In this document: in pieces, positions 6,671 to 49,500 of the stretch
How the letters are laid out: every line of letters starts with the position of its first letter
Position numbering within the stretch: the first letter of the stretch is position 1
NCBI RefSeq assembly: GCF_037042905.1
Contig: NC_087245.1
Location: 6,450,001 to 6,514,000, forward strand
Direction of reading: 5' to 3'
Origin: Lytechinus pictus
Taxonomy: Eukaryota
DNA length: 64,000 bases
Program-made: the position numbers and the translations under genes
Notes under the pieces: generated by a model
Database searches by the model: none
What the model was told of the DNA's origin: nothing
The model's input: only the letters and a program-made list of their open reading frames with translations

Positions 6671-9600
6671 GTGAGTATATTTTGTTTGATGAGGTTTGAA
6701 GGTTCGTACGGTGGTATGAACAATCGCGGAAGTGGCTTATGGTTACGGTACACCGACCATGGGACAGTCCTGGAAGGACCGAGATAAAAGTGGATAGAAA
6801 TATGGAAAGGCGAAAAAGTGGAGGTTTGGGAGTAGAGTATTATTTTGTAAATGAGTGCAGTCCTAAAAAAGACTGTAAACCAGAAGGAGTGGAAGGCTGA
6901 ATATTAGGCAGGTTGGGAGGCATGGGGAGGCATGATGGCTTGAGTTGTAGTATTGGAGCTGCATGTATACTGCATTCGCCGACTCAAACCAGCCTTTTCT
7001 CATCTACATGTCATACTATTTACAAAAATATGTAAACGATGCCATACATAACATGAGATGTTTCCTTGAACAATATACATGTATAGACTACCGTTAAAAA
7101 ATACACACAGTCTGACCTTTGCAACGTTTCTCAATTTTCAAACGATTACGAATCAATCTTTTGAATAAACAAAGTATATACCCAACTTATGAAATATGCA
7201 ACTCCCGGCTTTCTGTTCGAATAAAAAAAAGAATTGTATATATAATAAGAAAATTTAAAATTCTATATCTTTTTAAAGTCGTTTCATTTTATCAAAGTAC
7301 CAACATTAATATCGAGCTTAATTTTTACAACTTGATATACAGTACAGTGCTACTCATTCCCCCCAAAAATAATTGTTTTCTTACACGTTACAAATAACAT
7401 TGTCCTGTATGTCACCGTCGTGTGAACATAAAAAGGATTGTCTCTCAACTTCTTAACTGGGCGTTGTGGCGTGCGCCTGTAATCCAAGCTATGCGTGGAA
7501 GTTACAAATTGATGCAGAGGTTCGAGGTTCGAGCCCTGGTCACGTCTTTCGGATGGTGACGTTAAAGGTCGGTCCCAGACGTAAATAATCATATCTGATT
7601 GATACACGTCTGACAAAACTCAAATACACACACACACACTTCCACAAAGTGTATCAATGAGGTAAAACATTATGTAATATTATGACTTGTAATTAAAATG
7701 TGTTCTATTTTCTTTGACAGCCTGTTAATGATATAACCATAGTATTACAGATTTCCAATTAATCTCTTCTTACAAAATTTCTTCCCATCTTTCTTCGGCT
7801 TGAGACACATATATTATTTGCGATAAGGATGCAAAATAACTTTGACCTTCTTTTCTTATTTACATTCATCAAAATAAACGGCAAAATATCTATATTTTTT
7901 ATTGCATAATTTTATAATACAAACTCAATTTTTTTTTCAGTCATTTGATTTGGCATTCATTTCAATATTGTACTCCAGAAAAATGGTAGCATATTTTTTT
8001 TTCCAGATATGTATTCTATTTCTTTAAATGATTTAATTTTTTAATATGAAATTATGTCTCGTACGTTCAAAATTCCAGTATCGAACCATCTTTTAAACAA
8101 CATATTTCCATTCCGGTCTTTGAATAGCCACAATATTTCCTTCTTAATCTGAATGGTCTGAAAACCTGTTTTCTTTTTAATAGTTTCTTTGAAATTCAAC
8201 CATGCTTAAATAATCGCCTTATAATACTGTCGCATTTTATTTTTATCAATATATAACTTTATTTTACAGTAACTGTGTAGCACTCAAATTCTCCAAACTG
8301 AGAAAGGAAACTATCAGTAAATTTCGATTCTATGTTATTATGCTAATACAAAATCCATTTCAATTAAAAGCCTTGGGGTAACATTCAAATCCACCATTTT
8401 AAGTCCACCAAAACTGATTTTTTTTTTTGCAAAAAAAACTAATTTTCTATGTACCTAATCTGTTTTTCCACTTCATAAAAATGAATACAGTAATGCAGTT
8501 AAAAACCTTACATTTTCTGGCATTGTAATCATTCAGCATGCTACAAATTTGAGAGATGAGAAATGTTTTGGTTATGATTATTTTTCCTGTTAAGTTGGGC
8601 GACGTGCATCGCATGTTTTTATTATTAGACGTTCTACTTTCAATATTTTTGAACTACACTTCAGATCCGAAAGATTCAGTTCATTCCCCCAAAAAACTTA
8701 ACATTTGAATAAGTCCAAGGAATATATTTTACATTTTTTCACCAACTGAACCATCTTTTAATATTTTGGATCATTTTGTTTTATTCAAATACAATCCTGA
8801 AAAAGAGCTATACTTTTCTTCTTGGTAAATAATTTGTGTAAAGCAAGAGTATCGTTAACAAATATTGTTGCATCGTCTGACCAATTCAAAATTTTATTGA
8901 TTTCAACTGTATAAAAAAATTTTAATTCCTGTAATTTCTGGATAATTTCTTATCTTCATAGCTAATACTTCTGCAGCAAGGAAAAATAGCAATACGGAAA
9001 GGGGGCACCCTTGGCGCCTACCTCTCGATATACGGGTCGTGTGGTCCAGTGGTTAGAGTATTGGACTCACAATCACAAGGTTGTGAGTTCGAATCCCCAC
9101 TCTGCCATTGTCTCCACTTTGATAAAAAGGCCCGAAAGTAATATCTGTCGTCTGTAAGGTCAGCCATTATGACTGATTAACGTAGACGTAAAAATGTTTC
9201 CTAGGTAATTTGTTATATACCAGCTTGGCGTTTACCAGCAAAATGCTGTCCTGTCGAGTTCCTACAGGAGTTACCATAAACAGATACTAATCTTTTCTGT
9301 TAGCCATCTGTTTATGTTGACGTAACTCTTAACATTATTTTAAAAAATGTGACCCAACTACACAAATTATCTTTAAATCGATGACTTTGCAAACATTCAA
9401 ATAAAAAAAATCTTGACTTAGGCTATCAAAAGTCTATTCTAAAATCAGTCAGTAATGTATTCCCTCATTAAGCATGATATTTAAAGTAATAAAATATAAC
9501 CTCGATCAATCTGACATTTTCAGATATACTTCCTCTTTATATACCTGGTTATCTGAGATTAATGTAGGTATTTCCTTTTGTAACCTTTGGGCTATAACTG

Positions 9601-12600
9601 AAGCTGTTATAATCGTAGTTTAGGAGACAGATAGGTCTCCAATTATCCAATCCAGATTTGTCACCTTTTTGTACAATAATTTTATTACAGCTTGTTTTGA
9701 GAGTTTGATAATTCGTAACACATTCAAAACTCTCATTTAAAGCAGATAAAAGTGGAACTAATAATTTCTGTCCAAAAGGTTTGATAAAATTCGACTTTAA
9801 AACCATAATTCCCCGGTGGTTTATTTTTATCAAAATCGAAAACAACCTTTTTACATCTGGTTAAGATAAAATTCCTTCAGCAGTTCACACAAATCTGCAA
9901 GATCGTTAGATAATTTTGGGAGAAAGTGTTGCTGATTTGTTATCCTTACGTAATAACAAAATGGAATTATCATCAATATTTCTCTTCTCTAATGACGTGA
10001 ACTATCTTGAACACTTTTTTTACCTTCCTCAAACTAATTTACTCTTGACCTTACAATTAAACCCATGCATTATTGTTTATATCATTTATCTTCCAATGGC
10101 TCAGTAGTCTTTTCATAATCTTTTACCATGTCTATATTTTTTCCTCCATTTTTTTAGTTCCACATTTACTCGTTCAGCTTGAACAGTTTTTCTTCTAAGA
10201 CACTTTCATCATTTTCATTTTTTTTCTTATGCTTTGCATATCTAATAATTTTGCATATTTCTGACGTTTGACGCCAGGAAATTGATAGTTCTTTTTTTTT
10301 CTTGGACTAGGCCATTTATATATTTTCTTACCTTACCACAGTAATCATCGTTTGTCAATAAATTTGTATTCAATTTCCAAACGCCCGGACCTTTATCATG
10401 TTTATTCGTCCCATCAGTTTTGATTGTAATGGTGACGGTGATATGGTCACCGCTGGCTACTGGTCTTAAATCTGTGTGTTTTTTTATCCTTTTAATTCTT
10501 TAATTGAATGTGTCCATCCTTGAATAACCAAATGTGAATTTACATTCTTTGGACAGAGCTTTTGTTTCTGTGTATTGTAAACATCTTTGAAAAATATCTC
10601 TGTTCAAATAAATGTTTGGTGCGTATGATATAACTGATATAAACAACTACGTATTTGAATCGACTGTATTTCACATTCTACAATAAGCAACCTTCCAGCA
10701 CAATCTTTATATTTTGCTAGATATTTTTTATTTTAGTCTGCCTTGCTTAAAGGTGAAGTCCACCCCAGAAAAATATTGATTTGAATCAAAATATAGAAAT
10801 CAAACAAGCATATAACACTGAAAATTTCATTTAAATCGGATGTATAATAAGAAAGTTATGACGTTTTAAAAATTCACCTATTTTTTACAAAACAGTACGA
10901 TATATGCACAACTCAGTGATATGTAAATGAGAGAGTTGATGATGTCCATCACTCACTATTTCTTTTGTTTTTATTGTTTAAATTATGCAATATTTCAATC
11001 GTTACAGATTTGGGAATAATGACCAATAACTTGACTGAACCACAAATGTCAAAGCAGTGGAAATTCCACATATTCCATGTATTCAGGGATGAATAAATCT
11101 TTGTTTCACATTACAATGAGGAAGAAAATTTAAGTTAATGTGGTGTATTTCATAATGACTGGAGTACCAGGGCCGGGGATCGAACCCCGGACTTTCATGC
11201 GTCCCGTCAGGCGCCTGAGACCACTCGGCCACGGTACAGATGGATAAGCAGATATCGAATCGAGTTATCGGTTACACTCTTTAAAGGTCAAGTCCTCCCC
11301 CAAAAAATGTTGATTTGAATAAAAAAAGAAAAATCTAACTAGCATAACGGTGAAAATTTCATCAAAAATCGGATGTAAAATAAGAAAGTTATGACACTTT
11401 AAAGTTTCGCTTATTTTTCACAAAACAGTTATTATGTACAACTCAGTGACATGCAAATGAGACAGTCAATGATGTCCCTCCCTCCCTCACTATTTTTTTT
11501 TTTATTGTTTGAATTATTTTTTTCCATTTCTTTACATGACAATTGGATCAACTTGACTGAACCATATAGTATTAAAACAATGTTAATTCCACTGTTCAGG
11601 AAGGAATTAATCTTTGTTTTCACGTAACAATGAGGAAAAAATAGAATATTCCATATCTAATATAATGACATACAAAAGAAAAAGTGAACGGATGACGTCA
11701 TCGGTCTCCTCATTTGCATACCGACCAGGATGTGCATATAACTGTTTTGTGAAATTAAGCGAAACTTTAAAATGTCATAACTTTCTTATTTTACATCCGA
11801 TTTTGATAAAATTTTCAGTGTTATGCTTGTTGGATTTTTCTACTTTTATTCAAATCAACTTGTTGTTGGGGTGGTCTTGTCCATTAACTAATGAACTGTG
11901 AATGTTAAAGTACATGTAAGAATTGTTGGGAAATCTATGTCCTATTCATTTGTCGCTACATCGAACCATTGGATGCTGAGTCAAAAAGGGACCCCTATAT
12001 TGTTCGTTGGTTACAAGAAGTTTCAGAACATGGTTGTGTGGACAATCTTTAGCATATAAAAGTATGGTTTGATTTAAGTTATCTGTTCTAATTTTTCTTT
12101 CATTGCGTCTTATAAATTATTTTGCCTTTGACGTAAATCAAAGACCATCTAGACATTGTTTTTCGTAATTCGTGAATATATACCTCTTAAAACATTGAAA
12201 TATGCTTTAAAATATGTAATTCATACGATCATTTCACGTTCACAGAGAATATCCTATTACTATGACCAAGAAAGTTCTGGAAATCCAGTCTTCACAGTTC
12301 AAAATGATGTCAACCGTCATAGCACCAGGCACAACCAGCACTCATCAAGACCGAATCATGACCGGGAAGAACCAACATATCACGCCAATTGGAAGTTTAA
12401 TAGAAATTCTTCTGAATCTGATCGACGACATTCAGAATTGAGATTAAACGCAAACATAAGCAAATTTAATTCTTCTCATGAAACTAATTTCAGAGAGAAT
12501 TCATCTAAGAGACGCGGTCAGATGACACCTTCAAATCCAACCGATTTTAAGCAACACTCGATGAAACAAGCACTCCACAATCAAAACTATTTCCCGGAGA

Positions 12601-18600: not shown

Positions 18601-21600
18601 GTATAACGATCAGAACCCCCCGGGGGGGGGGGGGGGGCACTTCCATTGACGAGTGGATACCATGTGCGACCATGGGGTCTCGAAAAGCACCCTAAACACG
18701 TATTTTCCATATTCTGAAAATGCAACCATTAACAAGTATTGGCGTGTGAAACCCCACCCTTAACAAGTAAACAAAAAAGTAAACAAAACGATACTCTTAC
18801 CAAGCATTCCCTGCATGAATTGACCCCCTAAACAAGTACAGCGATATTTTTATTATGTCACGGACGTGACGTCGGTCGTCGGATTTACCTTTACCTTCAT
18901 CGTTGGGTTTAGTACAGCTCCTACATCTCGCGCAAATCGTACCTTTAACACGTATAGTGTCGACTATTGGGGCAAAAAGTACATCCTTTATAAAACATTT
19001 TATTCTTAATTTTTTACACCCTCGCAAATTTGACCCTAAACACGTAGCTCTCCTAGCGAAAATAGATACCCTTCATTATCTTAGTGTCTTTGACACCCTT
19101 ATTACGTTGAAAAAGACATCCTTTTTACGTGTTTTTTTGGTCGCGCATGGTATCCACTCGCCAATGTAAGTGGCCCCCCCCACATCGATTTCCATGATTT
19201 AAGTGATTTGTTATCAACTGCGCATACAATATGTGAATACAGTTCCGAACACGAACTGCGTCAAGCCCTTCTTACGGTAACGATTATAGGACTAAAGTAG
19301 ACAAGTATGAAGAGAATGCCATTCAGATGACAATCACGGTTACATTGTTAGTGAATTCATTATGAGACTGCATGAGTGAAGAGAGAAAGCAGAAAAATAT
19401 TAGATATAGCATGATGTCCAATAGTGCATTTTATGAGTGAACTTTAGATTTTTCCTCTTCTATTGAGTTCTTGGGAGACGAAGCCGAAGCCCGTGGGCTA
19501 GCGATAATGTTTACTTCATTTGCTAAAGCCCCAGTCACATATAGACACGGATTCTCACGGATCAACACGGCAATGCCGGCATGATCCGGGGAGGTCCGGG
19601 ATCGTTTTGCCCCGGATTGAGCGTTGATGACTGTAAACACGGTATCTACACGGCATCTTCACACGGATCTACACGGACCATGCCGGCAGAGCACGTCGTC
19701 AACACGGACCAACACGTCAGCAACACGGACCTACACGTCAGCAACACGGACCAACACGTCAGCTACAAGGACCAACACGAACCAACACGTCAGCAACACG
19801 GACCTACACGTCAGCAACACGGACCAACACGTCAGCTACACGGACCAACACGTCAGCTTCACGGACCAACACGTCAGCTCAAGGACCAACACGGCAGCTA
19901 TATTGACCAGCACGTCAAATGAAAATCTGCTCATAATAATGAGCTGATATTTATTTTATTTTTTATTTTTTCTCATCCTTGTCGCAACATTATATTATGT
20001 TGTTTTTAAAAAAAGATATCAAAACTCAAAACTTCCTTAATCAGTAAAAACGCTGTTTTTTTTTAAATACAACACAGTTTACTGTTTTAACAGTATTTGT
20101 TGAGTACTTTAAATCTTGAATGACAAATTTAATTTTGATTTGATTTGATATCACTTTATTTAAATCAGAATAAAGGAAAGAAATTTACAAAGTCAATAGA
20201 AAACATAATAAGAATTAAAATAGGCCCAGGTCATGACGCATAACTGTCGATGCAGGGCAGTAGTATGAAACTTAATATACAATTTCGATGTAACAGGTAC
20301 ATAACAAATACATATAACATATAAAAAGAATGAAATGTGAAATAATAATAACAGACAAAGTTGGGGGTAAATATTAGAGAAAAAAAGAGAAAAAGAATTA
20401 TTAATACATGCACTAAGTTTACAAATATTAGGTTGGGGCCAATCTCCACAGCGTAAGAAAGTATCCTGAATTATTCAATTATCCATTTAATCATAAATAA
20501 ATTAAGCATGTTTGTGCCAACTGTTTAACAACTACTGAAAAGTTCATAAAGTAAATAGCGTTGTAAAGATTTTAAGCCCCAGTCACATATAGACCCCGGA
20601 CCACCCCGGACCATCCCGGATATGATCTGGGGTGGTCCGGGGAGAGATCCGTGTTGGCGCCTTGGGCATCCTTGGAGGTCCGGGGTGGTCCGTGTTGGTC
20701 CTTGAACGTCCGGGAGGCCAACACGGCAGTTTTTACTGTCAAAAACATCCGGCGTCATCCGTGGACTGCCGGGTTGGCAAAGCCATCCGGGATGGTCCGT
20801 GTAGCTGCCGTGCAGGTCCGTGTGGCTGCCGTGTAGGTCCGTGTAGCTGCCGTGTAAGTCCGTGTGGCTGCCTGGAGTATCCTTGGCAGTCCGTGTTCTT
20901 TTTTCCCATCAAATCTTTACAACGCTATTTACTTTATGAACTTTTCAGTAGTTGTTAAACAGTTGACACAAACATGCTCAATTTATTTATGATTAAATGG
21001 ATGATTAAATGATTCATGATATTTTCTTACGCTTTGGATATTGGCCCCAACCTAATATTTGTAAACTTAGTGCATGTATGAATATTTTTTTTCTCTCTTT
21101 TTTTTCTAATATTTACCCCAACTTTGTTATTATTATTTCACATTTCATTTTTTAAAAAGATGTTATATGTATATAATTTATGTAATGTACCTGTTACATC
21201 GAAATTGTACATTAAGTGTTATACTACTGCCCTGCATCGACAGTTATGCGTCATGACCTGGGCCTATCTTAATTTTTATTATGTTTTCTATTGACTTTGT
21301 AAATTTCTTTCCTTTATTGTGATTTCAATAAAGTGATATCAAATCAAATCGAAATTAAATTTGTCGTTCAAGATTTAAAGTACTTAACAACTACTTTTAA
21401 AACAGTAAAGTGTGTTTTATAAAAAAACTGCGTTTTTACTGGTTAAGGAAGTTTTGAGTTTTGATATATTTTTTAAAAACAACATAATATAATGTTGCGA
21501 CAAGGATGAGAAAAAAATAAATAAATAGATAAATAAATAAATAAAGAATTAAATAAATAAATATCAGCTCATTATTATGAACAGATTTTCATTTGCCGTG

Positions 21601-24600
21601 CTGGTCAATATAGCTGCCGTGTTGGTACTTGAGCTGACGTGTTGGTCCGTGTAGCTGACGTGTTGGTCCGTGTAGCTGACGTGATGGTCCGTGTTGCTGA
21701 CGCGTTGGTCCGTGTTGGTCCTTGTAGCTGACGTATTGGTCCGTGTTGCTGACGTGTTGGTCCGTGTAGCTGACGTGATGGTCCATGTTGCTGACGTGTT
21801 GGTCCGTGTTGCTGACGTGTTGGTCCGTGTAGCTGACGTGTAGGTCCGTGTTGATGACGTGTCGGTCCGTGTTGACGACGTGCTCTGCCGGCATGGTCCG
21901 TGTAGATCCGTGCGAAGCTGCCGTGTTGATGCCGTGTTTACAGTCATCCGGGGCAAAGCTATCCCGGACCTCCCCGGATCATGCCGGCATTGCCGTGTTG
22001 ATCCGTGAGGATCCGTGTCTATATGTGACTGGGGCTTTATGGGGAAAAAGAACACGGACTGCCAATGATACTCCAGGCAGCCACACGGACCTACACGGCA
22101 GCTACACGGACCTACACGGCAGCCACACGGACCTACACGGCAGCTACACGGACCATCCCGGATGGCTTTGCCAACCCGGCAGTCCACGAATGACGCCGGA
22201 TGTTTTTGACAGTCAAAAACTGCCGTGTTGGCCTCCCGGACGTTCAAGGACCAACACGGACCACCCCGGACCTCCAAGGATGCCCAAGGCGCCAACACGG
22301 ATCTCTCCCCGGACCACCCCGGATCAGATCCGGGACGGTCCGGGGTGGTCCGGGGTCTATATGTGACTGGGGCTTAAGGGAGGTCCAGATTGCATAACTT
22401 TGGCTGAGCTCATTTCCTCGACGTTTATATCACGGAGATAAAGCTCCGTGTTCTAATCGCTTGCGATCAGTCAGGCGTATTGAATTGATGGAGCTTTAGA
22501 ATTGATCAATTTGAAACGAAAAGGATTAAATTACTATTTTTTTTTCAGCGTGAAAGGACGCGGTTAGTCATTTACGACATAACTATATTACGCCATCAAT
22601 AGAAGATGATATAACCCATATTACACAAAAATCAATGACCATTCATACGAGAATTTGTTCTGGTTATACATGTATAATTGATTTACATCAGTGGTTGAGT
22701 TACGGATATTTAATTGTATATTATTTAAAAAATCATTTAATTTGGAAATTTGCGATCAAAGCCTATTATGTGTACGGATTTCGGAAAATATCCCATAAGA
22801 GCAACTCACTGCCTTGTCTGGCGAGTGCGTGTACATTACCAGACTTTTGACACCACTATTTAATGGGATGGTCCAGGCTGAAAGTATTTATAGCTTAATA
22901 AAAAGAGTAGAATTCACTGAGCAAAATGCCGAAAGTTTCATCAAAATCAGATAAGAAATAACAAAGTTATTGAATTTTTAAGTTTAGCAATATTTGCGAA
23001 AACAGTCTTCATGAATATTCATTAGGTAGGCTGATGATGTCACATCCCCACTTGTTCTTTTGTATTTTATTATATGAAATTAGGTTTATTCAATTTTTTT
23101 ACTCCAAGAACTAGAAAAATTGGATAGACAACTGATTTAGTGCATTAGATATTCATTGCTGCAACTTATTTCTTTACAAGGGAGACATATTATTCACACA
23201 AGTATGAAATAATGAAAAAAATATGATTTTATGTAATAACATAAGAAAACGGAAAGTGGGGATGTGACATCATCAGCCCACCTAATGAATATTCATGACG
23301 ACTGTTTTCACAAAATATTGCTAAACTTTAAACTTCAATAACTTTATTATTTGTTATCCGATTTTGATGAAAATTTCGGCATTTTGCTCAGTGAATTCTA
23401 CTCTATGTATTAAGATATAAATATTTTCAGCCCGGACCATCCCTTTAAGTCCGAGTGTGTACGATATTTATATTGTTTCGTGAAAATGCGTCCATAATAT
23501 CCTGACGATTACTATATATGTTATTTGCTTCCATAAAGGTCCACTTTCTACATCTTCATCAGCGGGAACGACAGGTAATGTAGCAAATTTTGTATAACAA
23601 TATAGTGGATAACATGAATCAAAAGACTGGGTTTTATACGTTCCAAGATTGATTCAATCATCAGTTTTAATTCAAAATAGAACGGGCTATTTTGACGCCT
23701 AAGAAGACTGGGAGAGGGGGGGGGGGGGCTGATTTAGCCCCCTTATGTTCTGGGCCGTCGATCCGGCGATCGCGACTAAAATTGGCAGGCGCGTTACCCG
23801 TTGCATAACCCATTGCCAAGTACTTACATTAATTTATGCGTAAAAATCATAAGTTGGCTCTAATTAATTAAAATAATGCCCCTAAAATGCTATTTTTTGG
23901 TACATCCTGTTCATAGGATCTGATCACATGTACTTTAAGAAAATTCAACATCACATTTATTTTCTTATGTATTTTACTGTTTTCTAAATTTCTTATGTAT
24001 TTCTTTGTTTTTCGACTTAAAAAAAATCTTATGTATTTCTTTGTTTTTAGACTTTTTCGACTTTTTGTTTTTTATTGTTTTTTCAATGGAAATTGTCGGG
24101 AACTTTATTTTGACCATAAACAAGATGAAATTGGTAAATGCCCCAAAATGGTTCAGACTCTTCGTAGGATCTGATAATGAACTTTAAGAAAAATTATTTT
24201 CTTATGTATTTTATTGTTTTCTAAATTTCTTATCAGTATTTATCTGTTTTTCGACTTTTTGTTTTTTCATTGGAAATTGTAGGAAACTTTATTTTGACCA
24301 TAAACAAGATGAAATTAATTCATTTTAAGCAGAAAAGGACAAAAAATGATACATTTATAAATTTGGGATAAAAACACTATTTGCATTGGATTTGTACACA
24401 AAAACACGCTTTTTAGCAATTTTTGGGTCTGCATGCACTTACGTAATGCTGCGTAATTTCGGAACCGCGTACCCGGGGGTCACAATTTTGGTCTCAAAAG
24501 TTGCGCGAGACTTGAAAATAAATAGTCCACGCACGAGCGACGGGGTCAAAAAATTTGCGCTGCGGATTCATCGCGAAAAATGTCGAGGGGTGGGGGCTGA

Positions 24601-28538: not shown

Positions 28539-31500
28539 TAATAATAATAGGCATTTATATAGCGCCATCTATCTAGAAGTATTCTATTCCGATCGAGGCA
28601 CGTTGCTTTTATTATTATTACCCCGGTTTTAGCTCGAGCTGCCTTTCAGCGCTCATGCATTCAAGGAATTAATCCTGCCGGGTACCCATCACCATTCACC
28701 TCACCTGGGTTGAGTGCCCGGGGGTCACTCTCGGCATGCATGGACTGCTACCCACCCGTGTCCGACAACCTCAGAAAACGGCATAACTACATAAACTAAA
28801 TTTGCAACCGGAAACGGCGTAACCCATGAGAAAAGCCACCCTATAAGTGGCGTGAACAGGGAAATTAAATCCCCTAATTTGATACCATAAGTGGCGTAAA
28901 CATAAACTCTATGGTGGAGAGTGACCCACCGGGGTTGAGTGCAGCACAATGTGGATAAATTTCTTGCTGAAGAAAATTACGGGATAATAATAATGACATT
29001 AATGATAATTGATAATAATGATAATGATGATGAGTAATAATGATAATAATAATGATAATAATAATAAGAAGAAGAAGATAAAGTAGGAGAAGGAGGAAGA
29101 GGATAGGAATATTAAAAGAAGTTAAATGATTACTTCCATATATTAAGTTGTAGTGAAAATCATTATTATTATTATTTCACAGTATCTGTAGATGTGGAAA
29201 CTCAAACTGTCTCCGAAGCTCCTACAACAACGGTTACTCCTTCTACCCCATCTCCAGGTTTGTATCTTATCATTAGTTCATTTTCCGTCGATCAGCAACT
29301 CTTTGTGCATTATAATAAAAAAATCATTATGCGTTTAGACTGAGCAGGAATAACCACAAGAGATATTTTCCCTCCCTCTCTCTACTCAATTCCCGGGACT
29401 CAATTACCTAAAAAAAATACTGTGCTTTTGAATGTCAACAATTACAAAAAACACCCCCAACATATGTCAAGCCAAGTAAAGCAGAAGAGAAGAAATTGAA
29501 CAATCATAATCTCTTCAACATCAACAAACAAAACACATTCATTGATTTTCTTAAGACACCAATCCTCCGCTCACACATTCCGTCGATCGGAATCGCGATA
29601 CCGGTGAAGCTGAAGCACCTACCTTGACCTACTTCACATTTTCATCAATGATCATTTTATAGTTTACGATTTTGCCGTCAATGCATGTGGTAACTATTTC
29701 TTGAATTGGTTTTGTATAAATTGTGAATATTTTGTGAACAAATTTAAGTCTGATATATATTTTTGAAAAGTCCGCGAAGTTTGGACACCCCATCATACAC
29801 CGGATCATACATTTCGGGGCACGCCGGCCAGGAATGGATTGTGCCTGGGATTGGTGGAGTGTAGCTCTCACTTAGTTTTATAGTGAATGATAAGGAGCCT
29901 GTGCCCGGCGGCCCGGGGCTAGTACAGTGCATAGTGCTCTGGAGACGTGGCTGGTGGTGAGAACGTTGCTGACGGTGATGCTGGTGGTGATGATGCTGGC
30001 CAATTTTAGACTTGGACTTGGTGATCTAGTTGAGTTGATGATATGATGATGATCGATGGCTAAATTGTAGATGATATTAACCATTTGTCTGTTGATTTGA
30101 GCGCGCACACTATACTTACAAGTTACAAATTGGAGCCTTTATAGTACTATTAATTACTAGCTTGTTCATGGCTTGTTGGAGCTAGGACTAAGTTAGGTGC
30201 CTGTGTACATTGTAACCTAGTCCATTGGAAAGGGCTGAAAAAACCATTTAAAATGGTATATTAACCATTACTCTAAGAGAGTTAAGAGAGTTATGATTTT
30301 TTAATATTAAAAATCTTGATTTAATTATTGCCATTGGCATTTATCTTACCATTGCGACCATTCAAAATGTGTGACCAACCGTGACCCAAAAATTTTTTTT
30401 TTACAAAATTATACAAATTATTCATTTAAATCTATAAAACTGAGTAATAATAGGTGATGAGAAAGGATATCAATATTTGTCTTAATTGATCAATGTATTA
30501 GATATTTAATTAGTAATTATCAATTAGTAAATTGATATGTTAATTGTTCATAAACTCAATACGGAACACATACAAACTTATCTTATTTCCTTATTGTTTG
30601 AAATTTTTTGACAAGAACTTCTGCAACAGCACATCTTCTAAATAAAACTTTCAGAATGATAAAACATTGAATACTTACAGAAAGATCTCAGTATTGCAGT
30701 ATTTGATAAATGTGTTGATTAATTATCAGTTAGCAATTTAATTAGTTATCTATTCAAATCTCACTGCTGCAAAAAAAAAAAATTCTTGATGTGGTATATT
30801 TTGATGGAAATTTCTGCTAAGGAAACATGGAATATAATGGATATGTGATCTATGAATATAAGGAATGGAAGTATTAAAGAAACATTCAACAATTTCATAT
30901 ACATCAATTACATACATGTATGACAACTATTATTGTTTGGCATCCATTGAATTTGTACCTAAATCTGTACCTCACTAGCTTACCTTGCTATGATTATGAT
31001 ATACTAGTAGTTAAATCCTCATTTATTGAACAAAATTTTGATGTCAGTTTCTACTATATCATATGAGCCAAATCAGACTTCCATGCGTCCCATCTTCAAA
31101 ATTTGACATCGAGGCGAAAGGGATTTTTTTCAGCTACGTCATCAGTGAAAATAAGCCAAATTGGTGAGAAACCGCCAAATCTACACCCATTTAAAGCGGG
31201 GACATCCCGATAGACCGCGGGTCCGATAGACCGCGGGTCCGTTAGACCGCGGGTCCGATAGACCGCGGGTCCGATAGACCGCGGGTCCGATAGTCCGCGG
31301 GTCCGATAGACCGCGGGTCCGATAGTCCGCAGTGTGTGTAAAATTATGATCAGATATATCAAATGTCATCGAGAGGTCCAAAGGTCAAATGATACGAGGC
31401 CATGGGGTTCTATCAGGTGCGGATCCATGGAGGGCCGAGGGGGAACTGCCTCATCCCCCCCCCCCACCCCCAGCTCAAAAAAAAGAGGGGGGAAGAGGGG

Positions 31501-34500
31501 AAAAGGGAGAGAATAAAAAAAGAAAGAGGAAGATGGGAAAAGAAGAGAATAGAAAAGAGAGTAAGAAGGAGAAAGGAAGAGAAGAAAAAGGGGAAAGGAA
31601 AGACAAAGAAAAAAGGGAGAAGAAAAGGGGAAAGAAGAGGAAAAAAAAGAGGAGGGAAAAGGAAGAGAAGAAAAGAGAGGAGAAAGGAAAAGGAGGAAAA
31701 AGAAGAAAAAAAAGAGGAACGAAGAGAAGAATATTTAAATAGAGAGGAAGATGGGAAGAAAGATAAGAAAAAAGAGAGAGAGGGGAAGAAGAGAAGAAAG
31801 AGAGAGAGGGAGGAAGGGGAGAGAGAGAAGAAAAAATATTAAAAGAGAAAAAAGGGAGAAGGAAAGAAAAAGAAAAAGGGAGAAGTAAAGGGGAAAAGAG
31901 AAAAAAAGTGGAAGAGGGAAAAGAAAAGAACGGAGTAAGGAAAAGGGGGAAAAGAAGAAGAAAAAGAGCGAGAGTAAGTGGGAAGAGAGGAAAAACGAGA
32001 AAAGATGGAAAGAAAAGACAGCAAAAAGAGAAGAAAAGGGGGAAAGAAAAGATGGGGGAAAGAGAAGAAAGGGGGAAAAGAAGAGGGGGAAAGAAAGAGA
32101 GAAAGAAAGAGAAAGGAAGGAAGGGGAATGAGGTTAAAAGAAAGAAAAAAGAAAGAAAAGGAGATGGGAAACGGAAGAGGGAGATGTTGACCTGGACGTC
32201 GATTTGATGGCGCCAAAATGACGTTCGAACTATGGGGCGCCGAATTGATGTTCGATCTAGCGGGGCACCAAATTGATGTTCGAACTAGGGGAGCGCTAAT
32301 TTGAATTTTGACCATAATGCGACAAATACATGTTTCAGAGAGGGGAGGGAGGGCAAAGTTATTTCACATGATGGGCGCGCCAAGTTTATGTTCAACCGAG
32401 GGCGCCAAATTGACCTTGAACTTAGAGGGCTTCATGCAAATTCATTTTCGACCGGGGACGCAACATTGCCTGTTTATAGTAAAATATATGTCCTGCCAAA
32501 AAACTTCAATTAATGCGGCTGAATTAAAATATCCCGTTTTTACGATAACAGAAAAAAAAATGTTTTCGAGTTTTAAGTCTGTTTAGCGAGATAGATACCC
32601 TGTTCAGGGTCACAAAAAAGGGTTATTGTCAAATTCAGCTCGCGCTACGCGCTCGCAATATTTGATTAATGACGTATGCATCCTCTGCTTCAATCCCACA
32701 TGTAAGTGTTAGTGTTTTTCAAGTCAACATACATAGGTCGATCCAGGGGGCAAAGATTTTGCCCCCCCCCCCATGGTGGCGCAAAAAAGGGGTAAGAAAC
32801 AGAAAAAAGGAAGAGAAAAGGACAAGCAATTAGAATAGGAATTATACCTTAGTCCTTCCTAAGTCAGTATATAAATACAGCTCAATAGGCTGATATGTAG
32901 TTTAAAATATCAAGTTTTGATATCAATATACAAAACATAATTCAGCTCGGACATCGATCTTTCATTATTTTGTTTTATTTACCAATTTATGTTTTAAGTG
33001 CTCTGGAAAATGTTTTATGGTTTGAATCAACATTTGCAACATTTTGTGCGCTCGCACTATATGCCAAGTAGGCCTATGTATTGTCTTTTTATATTTCATA
33101 TAAGATTCTCTAAATATACCTTTTCAGGTGTCTCGATTATAAAAAAAAATAATAAAGGCCTATGAGCTAGCGCTGTGCGCTCGCGTTTTGATTGGTGAGT
33201 TATGTATACCTATATATTAATTTTATAACAAACTACTTAAATCCCCCCATTAAAAGAAAAATCCGGATCGCGATTTGCGCTCGCATTATTTGCTAAAAAT
33301 ATATCAACCAATGAATCCTATTCATGATTACAAAAATACTTAAAATATCCAGTTTTCAGGCCTCATGCACTGTCAACAAATTTCACACACTCATTAGGCT
33401 TAACAGATTAATAAATATGAAATAAAATTTGTATAAATTCATTATAACTAAATTGTCCCTTTTTCAGAAATAAATTTTTAGGAAAACAAAGAGAAGATAG
33501 TCATCATTCTTATATGATGACAAAATGTCCTTAGGCCTAAAATGTCTCGATCCTAGGTCAAATAAATAATAAAATATCAGCTCGCGCTTCGCGCTCGCAT
33601 TATTTATATAGTGCTATCAAATTTCCCTATATACACAGTGCTGTAAACAGTGCTTAAATTGACCCTTTTCATATCGGAATTTCAAATATTATTTTCAGCT
33701 CGGGCTCTGCGCTCGCATTATTGATTTTTATGATGAAAAATGAAATGTATTCAGATTGCCAGGATTCTGTCTAACTCTAAAACACGCGCACGCATGTTTT
33801 TAGGATACAAAGCTTGATCTTATTCAAAACGTGCTAAAATTATCCAGTTTCGAATCAGAATATCAAAAAAATTTTGCTCGCGCTTTGCGCTCGCATTATT
33901 ATTGTAGGAAGATACCAAAAATTACCCATCCTTTTTCATGATTGACAAACATGAATCGAATGTCCCATTGGGGGATTTGAAATCTCATCTTTTTAGGTTG
34001 GAATATCAAAAATGTTCAGCTCGCGCTCGCATTATTTAATCGTTGAAATATGTATCGTCTTAATGGCTAACTGCAAAACATCCTTAACATGTCCCTTTTC
34101 GACCAGGCCAGAACGAATATTTAACATTTCTGCTCGGCTTCGCGCTCGTGGTAATTATCTAGTTATATACGCTGTTCAGGTTCACAAACATTGCCCAAAA
34201 TGTTCAATTTTCAGGACAAAATACATGAAATTTCATTTTTAGATTACATAGGGCTTAAGAGATTATTACACATTTATGTTGCTTATAAAGTAAAGCTAGG
34301 AAATGACTGTTAGGACATGGGTGTTTTGCCCCCCCCCCCAAAAAAAAAAAAAAAAAAGAAGAGAGAATCAAGACTAAGAAAAAATAGAGAGAAAAGGAAA
34401 GGGATAAGGATGAAATATAATATTATTTTCTAAATATTATGTCAAAATCTATCACAACATTGTATTTTTGTAATAAAAGTGTCAGCATATTGCTTGCTCG

Positions 34501-46500: not shown

Positions 46501-49500
46501 AACCCTGGGGTCACTGGCATTTGAGAGTGGACAGCATCCGCAAAAAGGTTTTTGTTTCAAGGGTAGGAGCGGAACGCAAATATATTGTGGAATAAGCCCA
46601 AAATGAGAAAAGAAGAACCCCTGAAGCACTGTGGCATGAAATGTTAATAGAGTATGTAATTTGCAAATACGGGACATCTGCACAAAAATTCCTGTTTAGA
46701 GTGTGCAAATCTGTGAAGATTTTTTTTTTTTGGGGGGGAGGGGGGATCTGCAAAACATCTGGGTTTAGAGTTTCCTAGTAGCCTGACTTTAAGGAGAATT
46801 CTCATGGATACTGTCCACTCTTCAATTTGGCAGTGACTGTGACCCCCATGTACTTGAAACCCCCTGCTGTATTGTTTATTTTATCCTCAGATTTGGAGAA
46901 TCCAATAGTGTCCTGCCCATTAGACATTACAGCTGAACTGGCAGCAAATCCTGTTTTATGGGATGCCACAGCTACTGATAACTCAGAGGAAATTGCTAAT
47001 CTCAGCAGTAGTCCCTTACCTGCAGATCTAATCCTTGGGGAAAACATAGTGACAGTGATAGCAGTGGACCCCTCTGGCAACAAAGCAGAGTGCACTTTTA
47101 CTGTCACTTTAACTGGTGAGTTTGATCTTCTGTTTACATGTCCATCAATTTCTTATAAATCCATCCATTATGCCTTATGTTGGTTTAGTAGCAAAAACAT
47201 ATTCATTATTTATAGTTCAAAATAGCATTTTGCCTTTTATTATGTTTTTCTTTAGCATTTTTTTTTCAGATGAAATAGGTTCATCAAACATGAGATTGAT
47301 TAAATAAAAAGACTTTGAATCTTCACTTCCTATGGAATTTATGATTATTTTGTTAGAAATACTCAACATGGTAATTTAAGGTCAACAAGTCGACTTTTAA
47401 CCAAGATGTTTTTTAGATTAGTAAAATGATTGGGAAAATGGATGGCAAATGTTTGATGAAATTAAAGATAATATTGTGCCCATCAGATACCACTGCACCC
47501 AGTATCACCTGTCCGGCTGATGTCTCTGCCACTGTGGCTACTGATGAATCAAGTGTGACCCTTACCTGGGATGAACCTTCAGCTACAGACCTCTCTGGTG
47601 ATGTGACAGTCACAGTTTCGCATTCTCCGGGAGTTTATACTATCGGTCAAATCACTGTGACAGCCAATGCAACAGATTCTTCTGGGAACCAAGCAAATTG
47701 TGTCTTTTTGTTGACAATTCAAGGTAGATTTATGGGGTTGATTGAGATGTGAATTAAAGTTTATTTAGACTTTAAGCACAACATTGCTGATAAAGATATA
47801 TTTTTGCAGAGTATTTTCTTTCATAATATAAGTTGTAAAGTGTATCGGTTTGTTCCTGCTGAATGTTTCCTTTTAAACCATTTGTCCTTGTCCATCACTA
47901 TGTTTATACATTAAACCTGTAGATGACTCTGTACTCACTGTAAGAATGTACATTTAATTTTTTGATTTAAATTTAAATGTTTTTAGAGATAAAAAGCGAC
48001 TGAAACGAATAAAAAAAATTAATTTTGTAAAAGAATGTAAAAAACTAGTTGATATCAAGGTTTATCAAGGATATCAAAGTAGCCCTTGAAGACTGCATGC
48101 ACTAATTTTTCAGAGGCTCTATTTGTTCTCAATGTTTTGAAAATAAAATTCACCCTAAAATTAGATATTGAACCCATACTCAAGACCTGAGTTTAAAAAA
48201 AAAATCTCTTTGTAGATTTGCAACATCCCATGATCAGGAATTGCCCAGCTTCTATATCGGTAAACACTGATAGTGGACTAGCCACTGCAGTGGTTATTTG
48301 GACACCACCATCAGCATCAGATAATTCTGGCTCTGTTTCTCTGACCTCCAACCACTACCCTGGGGATACCTTTCCTATCGGAAGCACTCGTGTGACTTAC
48401 ACAGCAACTGATAGTTCAGGGAATTTCGTCATGACTTGTACGTTTGACATTGCAGTGAATGGTGAGTTTTAATGGTTTCGGTATATTGGAATTATATATT
48501 TATTTTTTTCAGTATATATTTTGTTTGATTCAAATCATAATCTGTAGTTTCTGTACTATTGAAGTAAATCTGATGATCCTATTTCATGATTATCTTGCCT
48601 TCATGGAATGAAGGTAGCTGGATGTCTGTTACTTACTTTTCATTTTGTACACTTGTACACTATTTGACACATTAACTTCATTAAAAAAATATTGGAGTGA
48701 CAGTGATCTGAGTGGGCTTGGTGTAAGAAGGTAAAAGTTTAATGGAAAATACAAAGAGGTGAATTCATTTTTGTATTTCCAACAAAAATAACAATCATCC
48801 CTTAGAGATATATGAATTTTAATCATTCTTTTGTGTGGTTATTGGCTCATTAATGTCCATCTCTGACCAATTCCAACATATTAAGTAGAATCATAGAGGT
48901 GAGGAGGACATGATTTTCTCCTTTTTTTTGGGGGGGGGGGGTGGGGTGGAAGTCATCTCAAACATATTTCATACATCATCTTGAAGAAAGTGATGCAGAC
49001 AGAGTTCTTGCTTTATCTTTTTTTTCTTGTAGATAATGAAAGACCTGTAATATCTGGATGTCCAAGCTCAATCTCAGTGAATACAGACAGTGGTGTTGCG
49101 TCATGGGCTGCAAATTGGACAGAACCTACAGCTACCGACAACTCTGGCATACAGACATTAATATCAGATTATTATCCTGGCTATCCCATGCCTATTGGCT
49201 CTACTACAGTAACATACACATCAACAGATGTCACAGGATACAGTGCAACTTGCATGTTTGTAGTGACAGTCATTGGTATGTATGAATGGACAGCATGTGA
49301 AATTATTATTTAGATGTAGGCTTTTAGAGGCGCAGATATTTTGTGACGTCTTGCGAGGTTTTTTCAAAGAGACAAAATATTAAAACTTATTTTTAATGTG
49401 TATGCCTATGAAAACCATCCAAAATAGAAAATATTGGATGGTTTTCAGAGGCATATTAAAAATCCAATATTTTCCATATTGGATGAAATGAATATTTTGC

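Follow-up and report, generated by a model that had tools for sequence, protein, structure and literature searches.

What kind of sequence interrupts a decayed LINE at 7456-7639 (+) of the window, the whole 64,000-nucleotide stretch of Lytechinus pictus DNA analysed here, and why does it begin like 7SL RNA? An earlier note had described an insertion at this place with a 7SL-like head, a B box and a (CA)n tail, and on reading the letters of the window we found the sequence, the box and the tail as described. The stretch is one copy of a dispersed 184-base SINE. With a probability of about 0.86, we regard it as a young, non-autonomous SINE insertion of chimeric make-up, in which a 7SL head is followed by a tRNA-type remnant, a body and tail module and a (CA)n repeat. 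The copy and its surroundings can be laid out as follows.

7448..7452, + strand: left copy of the target-site duplication (ACTTC, present on both sides of the insert)
7453..7455, + strand: extra TTA, separating the left target duplication from the 7SL-derived head, missing from empty sites
7456..7502, + strand: head, identified by Rfam and 7SL gene alignment as a copy of the host 7SL 5' Alu domain (helices 2-4)
7503..7542, + strand: tRNA-like remnant with B box (SINE bases 48-87), read from the sequence
7519-7525, + strand: 7-base partial duplicate of the B box, preceding the B box, read from the sequence
7526-7536, + strand: B box GGTTCGAGCCC, read from the sequence
7543..7627, + strand: body and tail module (SINE bases 88-172), common to tRNA-like-headed SINEs elsewhere
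7576..7612, + strand: predicted 3' hairpin, outer stem CAGACGU/ACGUCUG, inner stem UAAUCA/UGAUUG
7626..7639, + strand: (CA)7 terminal repeat, differing in length among copies
7638..7642, + strand: right copy of the target-site duplication (ACTTC), overlapping the final AC of the tail
7200..10500, - strand: decayed poly(A)-type LINE, antisense to the SINE, ends approximate, with paralogues at 72-79% identity

The window copy is an insertion, because all nine aligned paralogues of the interrupted LINE have an empty site: they lack the 184 bases and read ..TTAACTTCCA.. without the insert. The insert itself is flanked by the 5-base target duplication ACTTC. In an intact paralogue (L044) the sequence ..YNLYKWKLRDNPLC.. 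runs across the empty site within an open frame of 669 aa, which matches RVT_1 at E 3.1e-17, so that the LINE reading frame said by the earlier note to be split is indeed an interrupted one. Pfam gave no match to the decayed LINE fragments in the window, RVT_1 being seen in the intact paralogue. In a protein atlas the LINE clusters covered few taxa, and a search of the assembly for COX1, from which the mitochondrial code might be read, gave no match. As the base preceding ACTGGG is A in 35/45 copies, the element may start one base before 7456.

The family to which the copy belongs is young and numbers about 1000-1700 copies, in contrast to the single copy that the earlier note had named as a refutation. 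A search of the genome with the element returned 1712 first-look candidates, and among the 47 scored matches listed from these, 43 were at 98-100% identity. Exact 26-base words from the head, core and tail occurred 750, 876 and 902 times, respectively, spread over many contigs, compared to 0 for reversed controls. The head of the window copy differs from the commonest head (17/57 copies) by a single base, at 7496. There are several subfamilies, each amplified, and while the loop of helix 4 varies among them, bases 1-30 are unchanged in all those seen, including copies that are only 81-91% identical overall. Being young, the family may supply insertion polymorphisms in this species.

Could these copies owe their spread to satellite amplification, or to segmental duplications that carried a 7SL pseudogene chimera along, with no retrotransposition at all? 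Head-to-tail arrays of 2-4 units do occur (L004, L010, L020-L022, L039-L042), and some copies lie within larger duplicated blocks (L039-L042, L074/L083). However, most copies have unrelated flanks and are found on many contigs, and the window copy shows a clean empty site and a target duplication. Exact flanking repeats of at least 6 bases were present in 20/91 copies, exceeding the randomly re-paired flanks (mean 2.1, maximum 6), although 6/20 of these lay at junctions of tandem arrays and the remaining 71/91 copies had no such repeat in this crude scan. 5' truncated copies also exist, and the short copies that start at bases 87-90 are separate insertions with target duplications of their own, of up to 14 bases. 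Target-site duplications, 5' truncations and empty sites are hallmarks of LINE machinery, and we consider spread without retrotransposition very improbable.

Where does the head come from? The Rfam Metazoa_SRP model matched 7456-7550 at 29.9 bits (E 4.8e-6), with model positions 1-48, the CCUGUAAUCC turn included, aligned at high posterior probability. The 47-base head by itself scored 29.5 bits (E 5.8e-7). Scores below the gathering score of the model (70) are expected of the 5' domain alone, as the first 47 bases of a true host 7SL gene reached 42.6 bits. The host genome contains seven full 7SL genes (272-283 bits), and the head matched 7/7 of them, with identity over 31/31 bases to L037 and 94.4-94.6% identity over 36-37 bases to the other six. 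When aligned in full, the head agreed with L037 in 43 of 48 columns, its first 30 bases being identical, and with a second 7SL gene (L031) in 41 of 47. This is a far better match than the 28/36 positions that the earlier note gave for human 7SL. The alignment to the species' own 7SL gene, one of the checks that the earlier note had suggested, thus came out in favour of a 7SL-like head, as did the Rfam scores.

The captured piece is short and has a definite 3' border. The overlap with 7SL is 45-47 bases only, and it runs exactly to the end of the 5' Alu domain, where an ACU/AGU pair closes helix 2; the U3/A45 pair of this helix is common to the head and L037. Comparison of SINE bases 48-170 with 7SL from base 41 to its end gave a score of 15, where the shuffle mean was 15.5 and 310/500 shuffles reached the score, and by this test we judge these bases to be unrelated to 7SL and the 3' part of 7SL to be absent. 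The head folds into two hairpins, as does the 5' end of the host 7SL gene, and its alignment fits the Rfam structure. Folding energies were not better than those of shuffles, either for the head (z between -0.5 and +0.3) or for the whole element (z = -1.25). Relative to the host 7SL genes, the loop of helix 4 in the head contains insertions, which might affect SRP9/14 binding. On sequence grounds, bases 1-47 derive from the host's own 7SL RNA, namely its 5' Alu domain, and their near-identity to the host's own 7SL genes places the capture in the host lineage.

These results also bear on whether this is simply an ordinary tRNA-derived SINE, with a 5' end that came to resemble 7SL by chance or convergence. 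Such a SINE would have a B box, as this one does, and relatives of the body have tRNA-like heads. Against this, the leading bases agree at 30/30 positions with one of the host's 7SL genes. The head is also closer to 7SL than to tRNA, as had been claimed: Rfam found no tRNA match in the element at E <= 10 and ARAGORN called none, compared to E 5.8e-7 for the SRP model. The 30/30 identity together with the score of the head alone refutes a chance likeness, and we give it a vanishingly small probability.

Downstream of the head, tRNA likeness in bases 48-87 comes through the B box only. In most copies the B box is duplicated; two copies (L022c, L098) lack the duplication. What these bases once belonged to is suggested by three marine metagenome contigs (L094-L096), in which a body and tail 87-91% identical to ours (SINE bases 84/88-172) stand behind other heads. 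In 3/3 of the contigs found, these heads are tRNA-like, with A- and B-box-like motifs, and differ from ours in being without 7SL similarity. The remnant sits where the 3' half of the tRNA-like heads lies in these relatives, and one contig (L095) aligns from SINE base 71. The shared body and tail thus lend indirect support to a tRNA-type parent of the SINE. The heads themselves give no such signal, as SINE bases 1-87 did not align to the three metagenome heads better than shuffles did (339, 446 and 865 of 1000 reached the score). No tRNA-headed parent was found in the host genome, where the two clearest metagenome heads match nothing.

The 3' end of the module is predicted to form a 13-bp hairpin in both the minimum-energy and the centroid fold. 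Both of its stems are unchanged in two of the three metagenome relatives (L095 and L096), where differences fall in the loops, while the outer stem is partly broken in L094. Two of the relatives end in CA-rich or CCAA repeats. The hairpin is presumed, from its predicted fold, to be a recognition site for the reverse transcriptase of a partner LINE. The middle segment may, as the earlier note suggested, resemble the Deu/Nin core of DeuSINEs. A search of full texts with a 14-base core motif returned only two unrelated biosensor papers, and nothing relevant was found in the MetaSINE supplements. A DeuSINE, SINE2-3_SP, is reported from a sea urchin (excerpt of PMC4824008), which keeps this lead alive.

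The hairpin and tail are also relevant to another possibility, namely that we are dealing with a functional 7SL-derived Pol III RNA gene (the family as such or a master copy), in the manner of BC200 or 4.5S RNA, with the dispersed copies as its retropseudogenes. The uniformity of the family (43 of the 47 matches listed at 98-100%) and the conservation of its 5' domain would suit such a gene. In contrast, a LINE-type 3' hairpin and (CA)n are found in every full copy, the hairpin and tail belong also to SINEs with different heads, and several subfamilies have each been amplified. We see only a slim chance of a functional RNA gene, and continue with a mobile SINE.

Which LINE might mobilise it? 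The interrupted LINE in the window was considered and rejected as a partner; it ends in AATAAA...A(n), with a poly(A) end unrelated to the SINE tail, and its 3' end has no similarity to that tail. A sensitive BLAST search of the body against the window and 42 loci found family members only. We also searched with patterns that excluded the SINE bases at the borders 84-86, 118-120 and 45-47, which gave 20, 69 and 23 matches, respectively. At border 84-86 all 20 matches were SINE variants or truncations, as were the 10 examined of the 69 matches at border 118-120, and the 23 matches at border 45-47, judged from the listed matches, included no LINE tail; a diverged partner tail would be missed by this kind of search.

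Taken together, we propose the following working for the element. Bases 1-47 are the copy of the host 7SL 5' Alu domain, bases 48-87 probably what is left of the 3' half of a tRNA-type SINE head, with its B box duplicated in most copies, bases 88-172 the body and tail module with the 13-bp 3' hairpin, and the (CA)n repeat ends the element. RNA polymerase III would start at the 7SL-derived start or one base before it, with the 7SL-derived 5' element replacing the lost A box and acting with the B box some 60 bases further on. As the 184-base element contains no run of four T, termination would fall in the flank. Six RNA runs labelled sea urchin, echinoderm, marine, estuary or fish metagenome match fewer than 5 of the 14 sampled words, which says nothing for or against transcription; the runs that contain the element are contigs of presumed RNA origin. 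Folded as a 5' Alu domain, the head would recruit SRP9/14 and so carry the RNA to ribosomes, in the way known from Alu. A LINE with a non-poly(A) tail would recognise the 3' hairpin together with (CA)n and copy the SINE RNA into the genome by target-primed reverse transcription. Template switching onto 7SL RNA is one way in which the chimera itself may have formed; another is insertion of a 5' truncated SINE into a copy of a 7SL gene.

Does the head do more than drive transcription? The 7SL piece may act as promoter and 5' end only, replacing the A box of a 5' truncated tRNA-type SINE, with no SRP9/14 binding or ribosome docking. The piece covers the stretch corresponding to bases 6-15 of human 7SL, where the internal A box is placed (Kojima 2020, excerpt of PMC7245038). 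Insertions in the helix 4 loop, and its variability among subfamilies, would suit a promoter. A stringent partner LINE recognises its SINE by the 3' tail, so docking may be unneeded. On the other hand, the piece stops where the 5' Alu domain does rather than just past a promoter element, and bases 1-30 remain unchanged in every subfamily seen. It is also the same unit as the 46-nt domain needed for Alu mobility and bound by SRP9/14 (excerpt of PMC11760393). We consider a promoter-only role rather unlikely, though well within reach of the evidence, and favour a head that would also dock the RNA to ribosomes.

What would such an element mean? Alu, which has had more success than any other mobile element in the human genome, is derived from 7SL. 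We put forward, as a tentative reading, a non-vertebrate SINE of more than 1000 copies whose 7SL part is the 45-47-base 5' Alu domain only and which relies on a non-L1 LINE; we hold this to be possible, though less likely than not. If it is true and the head binds SRP9/14, taking over ribosomes in this way would be a general route into the LINE machinery of various clades, one both much older and more widespread than Alu/L1 in mammals. One could then date the capture and trace the tRNA-headed parent among related species. A head with only the 5' part of 7SL would let nature itself test which portion of 7SL is important for mobility, and the element would illustrate how a SINE with a lost A box can be rescued by another Pol III gene.

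How does the family compare with known SINEs? In the available parts of papers to February 2026, 7SL-derived SINEs come from supraprimates, shrew mole and hagfish only, with three independent origins, all of them vertebrate and all keeping both 7SL ends. The earlier note had given Euarchontoglires and hagfish as the only sources; these lineages stand in the same partial texts, and the list omits Urop of the shrew mole. We found no report of a family such as this one in papers to February 2026, Repbase and Dfam being outside this search. The multi-copy family, the near-identity of its head to host 7SL genes and its absence from these papers support the proposal that a tRNA-type SINE captured a 7SL head in this lineage. 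It would be a fourth 7SL-SINE origin, with the 5' domain only, a tRNA-type chassis and a non-poly(A) tail, and would widen the taxonomic range of 7SL-derived SINEs.

The element sits between the established classes. The working definition of SINEBase, as excerpted from PMC3531059, asks for an overlap of 60 nt or more in which identity to a tRNA, 5S rRNA or 7SL RNA is at least 60%, and admits exceptions with shown Pol III transcription. In size and dispersal (184 bases, 1712 candidates, many contigs) the family falls within that definition, and its identity to 7SL is about 90% (43/48 columns), over an overlap of only 45-47 nt. As known SINE1 elements are described in the partial sources, the 5' part comes from 7SL, as it does here, and both 7SL end regions are kept, of which this element has one. 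Of the recognisably tRNA-derived head that marks a SINE2, the B box alone remains.

The closest parallel is SINE1-1_EBu (Ebu1-1) of the hagfish Eptatretus burgeri (excerpt of PMC7245038), an independent 7SL-headed SINE that is likewise a chimera with an older tRNA-type lineage. It is also young, with a few thousand copies (2363; excerpt of bioRxiv 10.1101/2024.08.25.609555), and has a short terminal repeat that is not poly(A). A non-L1 LINE moves the hagfish element by way of a LINE-type tail (excerpt of PMC7245038), as is proposed for the SINE here. In contrast to ours, which has 7SL bases 1-45 only, a tRNA-type B box and a (CA)n end, it keeps the 5' and 3' regions of 7SL, that is, the whole Alu domain after a central deletion, and has a bipartite RTE-derived tail, (AAC)n and a known partner LINE (same excerpt).

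Alu, FLAM, B1 and Urop (Kosushkin et al., bioRxiv 10.1101/2024.08.25.609555; BMC Biol 2026, both in part) share with the element a head copied from 7SL base 1, an intact 5' Alu domain and, approximately, the spacing of the A-box-like motif and B box seen in Alu. They differ in consisting of 7SL only, with a central deletion of ~183 nt and the 3' end of 7SL kept, and in being poly(A)-tailed, L1-driven and often dimeric, whereas the SINE here has no 3' part of 7SL, a foreign body, and a hairpin and (CA)n tail. Tu-type SINEs of tree shrews and GarnAlu of the bushbaby also combine 7SL and tRNA SINE sequence in one element, although theirs are fused whole SINE monomers within the supraprimate SINE1 lineage (excerpt of PMC7245038); the element here has a 47-base 7SL piece in place of the front half of one tRNA-type head.

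The most telling comparison is with the minimal 46-nt domain of AluY (Moldovan, Yin and Moran 2024, excerpt of PMC11760393). Alu retrotransposition in human cells requires this 5' Alu domain, which associates with SRP9/14 and is able to promote one round of the process. It comprises helices 2-4 in 45-47 nt and corresponds to all of the 7SL that the SINE here keeps, so that the piece retained in nature coincides with the one found necessary by experiment. The human work used engineered, L1-driven constructs, while ours is a natural family with putative SRP9/14 binding. If the head does bind SRP9/14, this SINE would be the natural equivalent of the minimal Alu domain as defined by experiment.

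The 184-base insertion at window 7456-7639 carries a head that, on sequence comparison, is copied from the genome's own 7SL, and only from the 5' Alu domain, with the 3' part of 7SL absent. The element starts GC-rich, reading ACTGGGCGTTGTGGCGTGCGCCTGTAATCC... from window 7456 onward, and re-reading the sequence agreed with the description in an earlier note. Its further features are:

Directly ahead of window 7526-7536, + strand: 7-base partial duplicate of the B box.
Window 7526-7536, + strand: B box, GGTTCGAGCCC.
Beyond the B box up to window 7639, + strand: unique middle, then a hairpin-forming 3' part, then a (CA)7 end.

The B box lies ~60 bases downstream of the 7SL-derived start, a spacing as in Alu, and TTTT is absent inside the element. 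A 27-base word from the SINE start occurred once in the window and in 0 of 100 shuffles. Folding energies of the element were no better than those of shuffles.

The 7SL-like start proposed in that note was matched by the Rfam Metazoa_SRP model (window 7456-7550: 29.9 bits, E 4.8e-6), with model positions 1-48 (helices 2-4 and the UGUAAU turn) aligned at high posterior probability and the remainder aligned poorly. The 47-base head by itself gave 29.5 bits (E 5.8e-7). The SINE scores fall under the gathering score of 70, as does that of the first 47 bases of a true 7SL gene from the same genome (42.6 bits), so a sub-threshold score is expected for a lone 5' domain. The second-best Rfam match of the element was mir-1268 (28.8 bits), which we take to be an Alu-derived family. 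No tRNA was found in the element by Rfam at E ≤ 10, and ARAGORN called none.

The assembly (812 Mb, 368 contigs) gave 25 scored SRP matches: seven full-length 7SL genes (272-283 bits) and 18 SINE heads (31.9-34.9 bits). All seven genes matched the SINE start, six of them at 94.4-94.6% over 36-37 bases and L037, the 7SL gene on contig 12, at 31 of 31 bases. Alignment to these genes, a check suggested by the earlier note, upheld its reading of the head. By Smith-Waterman the head and L037 agree in 43 of 48 columns, including all of the first 30 bases, and the head and the 7SL gene in L031 in 41 of 47; L037 was the closest of the seven. The helix 2 strands are ACU...AGU in both L037 and the SINE and ACC...GGU in the other six genes, which points to an L037-like 7SL gene as donor of the head. 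L037 itself departs from the other six in this compensated helix 2 pair (ACU/AGU for ACC/GGU) and also in the loop of helix 4. The homology ends after ...GGAAGU, at SINE base 47. Bases 48-170 scored 15 against the rest of 7SL, no better than shuffles (mean 15.5; 310 of 500 as good), so the 5' Alu domain alone was taken.

The element belongs to a dispersed, multi-copy family, as the earlier note had anticipated. A DNA search of the genome returned 1712 first-look candidates, of which 40 were scored; 43 of the 47 matches listed were 98-100% identical, and nearly all were full length, on many contigs. Exact counts of 26-base words across the genome were 750 (head; the 7SL genes themselves included), 876 (core) and 902 (tail), with 0 for reversed controls. 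These similar counts argue that neither the core nor the tail is shared with another abundant family of this genome. Among 57 copies with a complete 5' end there were 27 distinct 52-base heads, the commonest of which, present in 17 copies, is one base away from the head of the window copy (at window 7496). The 7-base B-box duplication is missing from one subfamily (L022c, L098), an older subfamily is 81-91% identical with a shorter junction, and further subfamilies vary in the helix 4 loop; SINE bases 1-30 are the same across all of them.

Copies of the older subfamily (81-91% to the window copy) also occur on contig 10 at ~7.91-7.92 Mb (L031:877-1049 and 1290-1466, L035:1294-1467, L036:1315-1467), ending 34 bases upstream of three 7SL genes arranged in tandem, with which they remain identical over their first 30 bases. 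They may represent a single insertion duplicated with the genes, gene conversion by the adjacent 7SL gene, or a clue to the birthplace of the chimera. Head-to-tail arrays of 2-4 SINE units joined via (CA)n were seen in L022 (contig 19, four units), L004, L010, L020/L021, L039-L042 and at two places on contig 7. One dimer recurs with identical flanks on at least five contigs or places, so it is part of a larger repeat, one that has been copied in its own right.

The sequence on both sides of the SINE belongs to a decayed minus-strand LINE, and the flank downstream of the SINE matches 18 more places in the genome (72-79% identity). Nine aligned LINE paralogues are continuous across the site and lack the 184 bases. 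One of them, in L044, retains a 669-aa open frame (RVT_1, E 3.1e-17), in which ..YNLYKWKLRDNPLC.. corresponds to ..YTLWK | KLRDNPF.. of the window, in agreement with the earlier claim that the insertion splits a LINE frame. The empty site is AACTTCCA; in the filled site ACTTC flanks the insert on either side, and three extra bases (TTA) stand ahead of the element. Because the base preceding ACTGGG is A in 35 of 45 copies, the true start may lie one base before window 7456. A crude scan of 91 copies found exact flanking repeats of at least 6 bases in 20, of which six sit at tandem-array junctions and are to be discounted, and of at least 8 bases in nine; the other 71 had none of at least 6. Randomly re-paired flanks gave means of 2.1 (maximum 6) and 0.47 (maximum 4), respectively. 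Clear flanking repeats reach 9-14 bases (L098, L070, L065, L084, L089).

Relatives of the body and tail were found outside this genome. When metagenome contigs were scanned once for a 22-base word of the core, three marine contigs turned up, matching SINE bases 71-181 (91.0%), 84-168 (88.3%) and 84-173 (86.7%). Upstream of the body, each carries a different head that occupies the place of a tRNA-type SINE head and contains A-box-like and B-box motifs. Neither Rfam nor ARAGORN called these heads tRNA, two of the three had no match in this genome, and their similarity to SINE bases 1-87 was not above shuffles. The body and tail module of bases 88-172 is thus common to SINEs of tRNA-headed type in other organisms, and in the element here the 47-base 7SL piece takes the position expected for the leading half of a head of that type. 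Two of the three marine relatives preserve both stems of the 3' hairpin without change and differ in the loops, and in the third the outer stem is partly broken. No compensatory stem changes were seen among the three, so the hairpin is backed by conservation alone. Sea urchin SINEs on record (PMC4824008) include the DeuSINE SINE2-3_SP and the MetaSINEs SINE2-1_SP and SINE2-2_SP. Separately, in L048 (LINE-sense ~2340-2420) the poly(A) of a LINE copy is immediately followed by a tRNA-like head that contains A- and B-box motifs (GGTGGCCGAGTGG...GGGTTCGAATCCC). This head, which is unrelated to the body described here, probably represents a further SINE family of the genome, of the ordinary tRNA-derived type.

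Some copies are 5' truncated, and the favoured start, at bases 87-90, coincides with the border of the tRNA-like remnant and the body. On contig 1, 20 of the 58 tail matches listed lacked an exact head or core word in their vicinity; the 19 stretches that contain them comprised 12 near-full copies with point changes and seven beginning at bases 82-98. A pattern barring SINE bases at 84-86 hit 20 places genome-wide, 17 being short copies that start at bases 87-90, some of them flanked by separate target duplications as long as 14 bases, and three being full copies with small changes. Additional truncation points were bases 36, 49, 100, 122 and 129. A discrete short form of ~97 bases (SINE bases 87/90-184) is seen in, for example, L084, L089, L074 and L061. 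It may arise from a reverse transcriptase stop at the 84-105 hairpin, or from cutting of the RNA at the tRNA-like end before copying.

How might such an element be expressed and copied? The 7SL-derived start would supply the 5' promoter element and the 5' end of the transcript, with the B box, at its Alu-like spacing, completing the putative promoter; with no TTTT inside the element, Pol III would read on into the flank. Of sampled element words, a fraction of 0.79 is present, as contigs, in 14 sequencing runs of one organism, five of them guessed to be RNA. The 7SL portion kept by the element corresponds exactly to the closed 5' Alu domain. For human AluY, PMC11760393 describes a 46-nt 5' domain as necessary for retrotransposition, associating with SRP9/14 and able to support one round. 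At the 3' end, a LINE reverse transcriptase of the stringent type would recognise the hairpin and (CA)n. Exact-word methods found no LINE with the SINE's tail in the genome; a tail diverged by more than a few percent would escape them. The interrupted window LINE was rejected as partner: it ends AATAAA...poly(A), unrelated to the SINE. The chimera could have formed by a reverse transcriptase switching from a 5' truncated SINE RNA onto 7SL RNA, as discussed for the hagfish element by Kojima (2020, PMC7245038), or by a truncated SINE landing in a 7SL gene copy.

Elsewhere the window contains four open frames in which Pfam finds HYR domains (E 2e-9 to 2e-20); they probably belong, as exons, to a single large extracellular-matrix gene:

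Window 46782-47225, + strand: HYR frame.
Window 48903-49313, + strand: HYR frame.
Window 51772-52281, + strand: HYR frame.
Window 59173-59586, + strand: HYR frame.

Purine-rich, low-complexity sequence at 31350-32363, with long K/E/R/G-rich frames on one strand and S/F/L-rich frames on the other, resembles a simple repeat and not a gene; the bin 30001-32000 has a GC skew of 0.28. At 21564-22373 two frames (269 and 177 aa) overlap on opposite strands and contain a repeated TSATRTN-like unit; this is probably a tandem repeat.

The origin of its head makes the element a SINE1, that is, a 7SL RNA-derived SINE. Kojima (2020, PMC7245038) and Kojima (2024) confine SINE1 to Euarchontoglires and hagfish, as the earlier note stated; its list omits the shrew-mole Urop, added by Kosushkin et al. 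(bioRxiv 10.1101/2024.08.25.609555; 2026 abstract). Within a literature search whose scope excluded most subscription journals and Repbase Reports, no 7SL SINE was reported outside Euarchontoglires, shrew mole and hagfish, including from mollusc, sea urchin or echinoderm. SINEBase requires a 60-nt overlap, of which the element falls short. According to the same Kosushkin et al. texts, all 7SL SINE families were born after a central deletion of ~183 nt, with both 7SL ends kept. Unlike every described SINE1, which keeps both ends, the element here keeps the 5' 7SL domain only.
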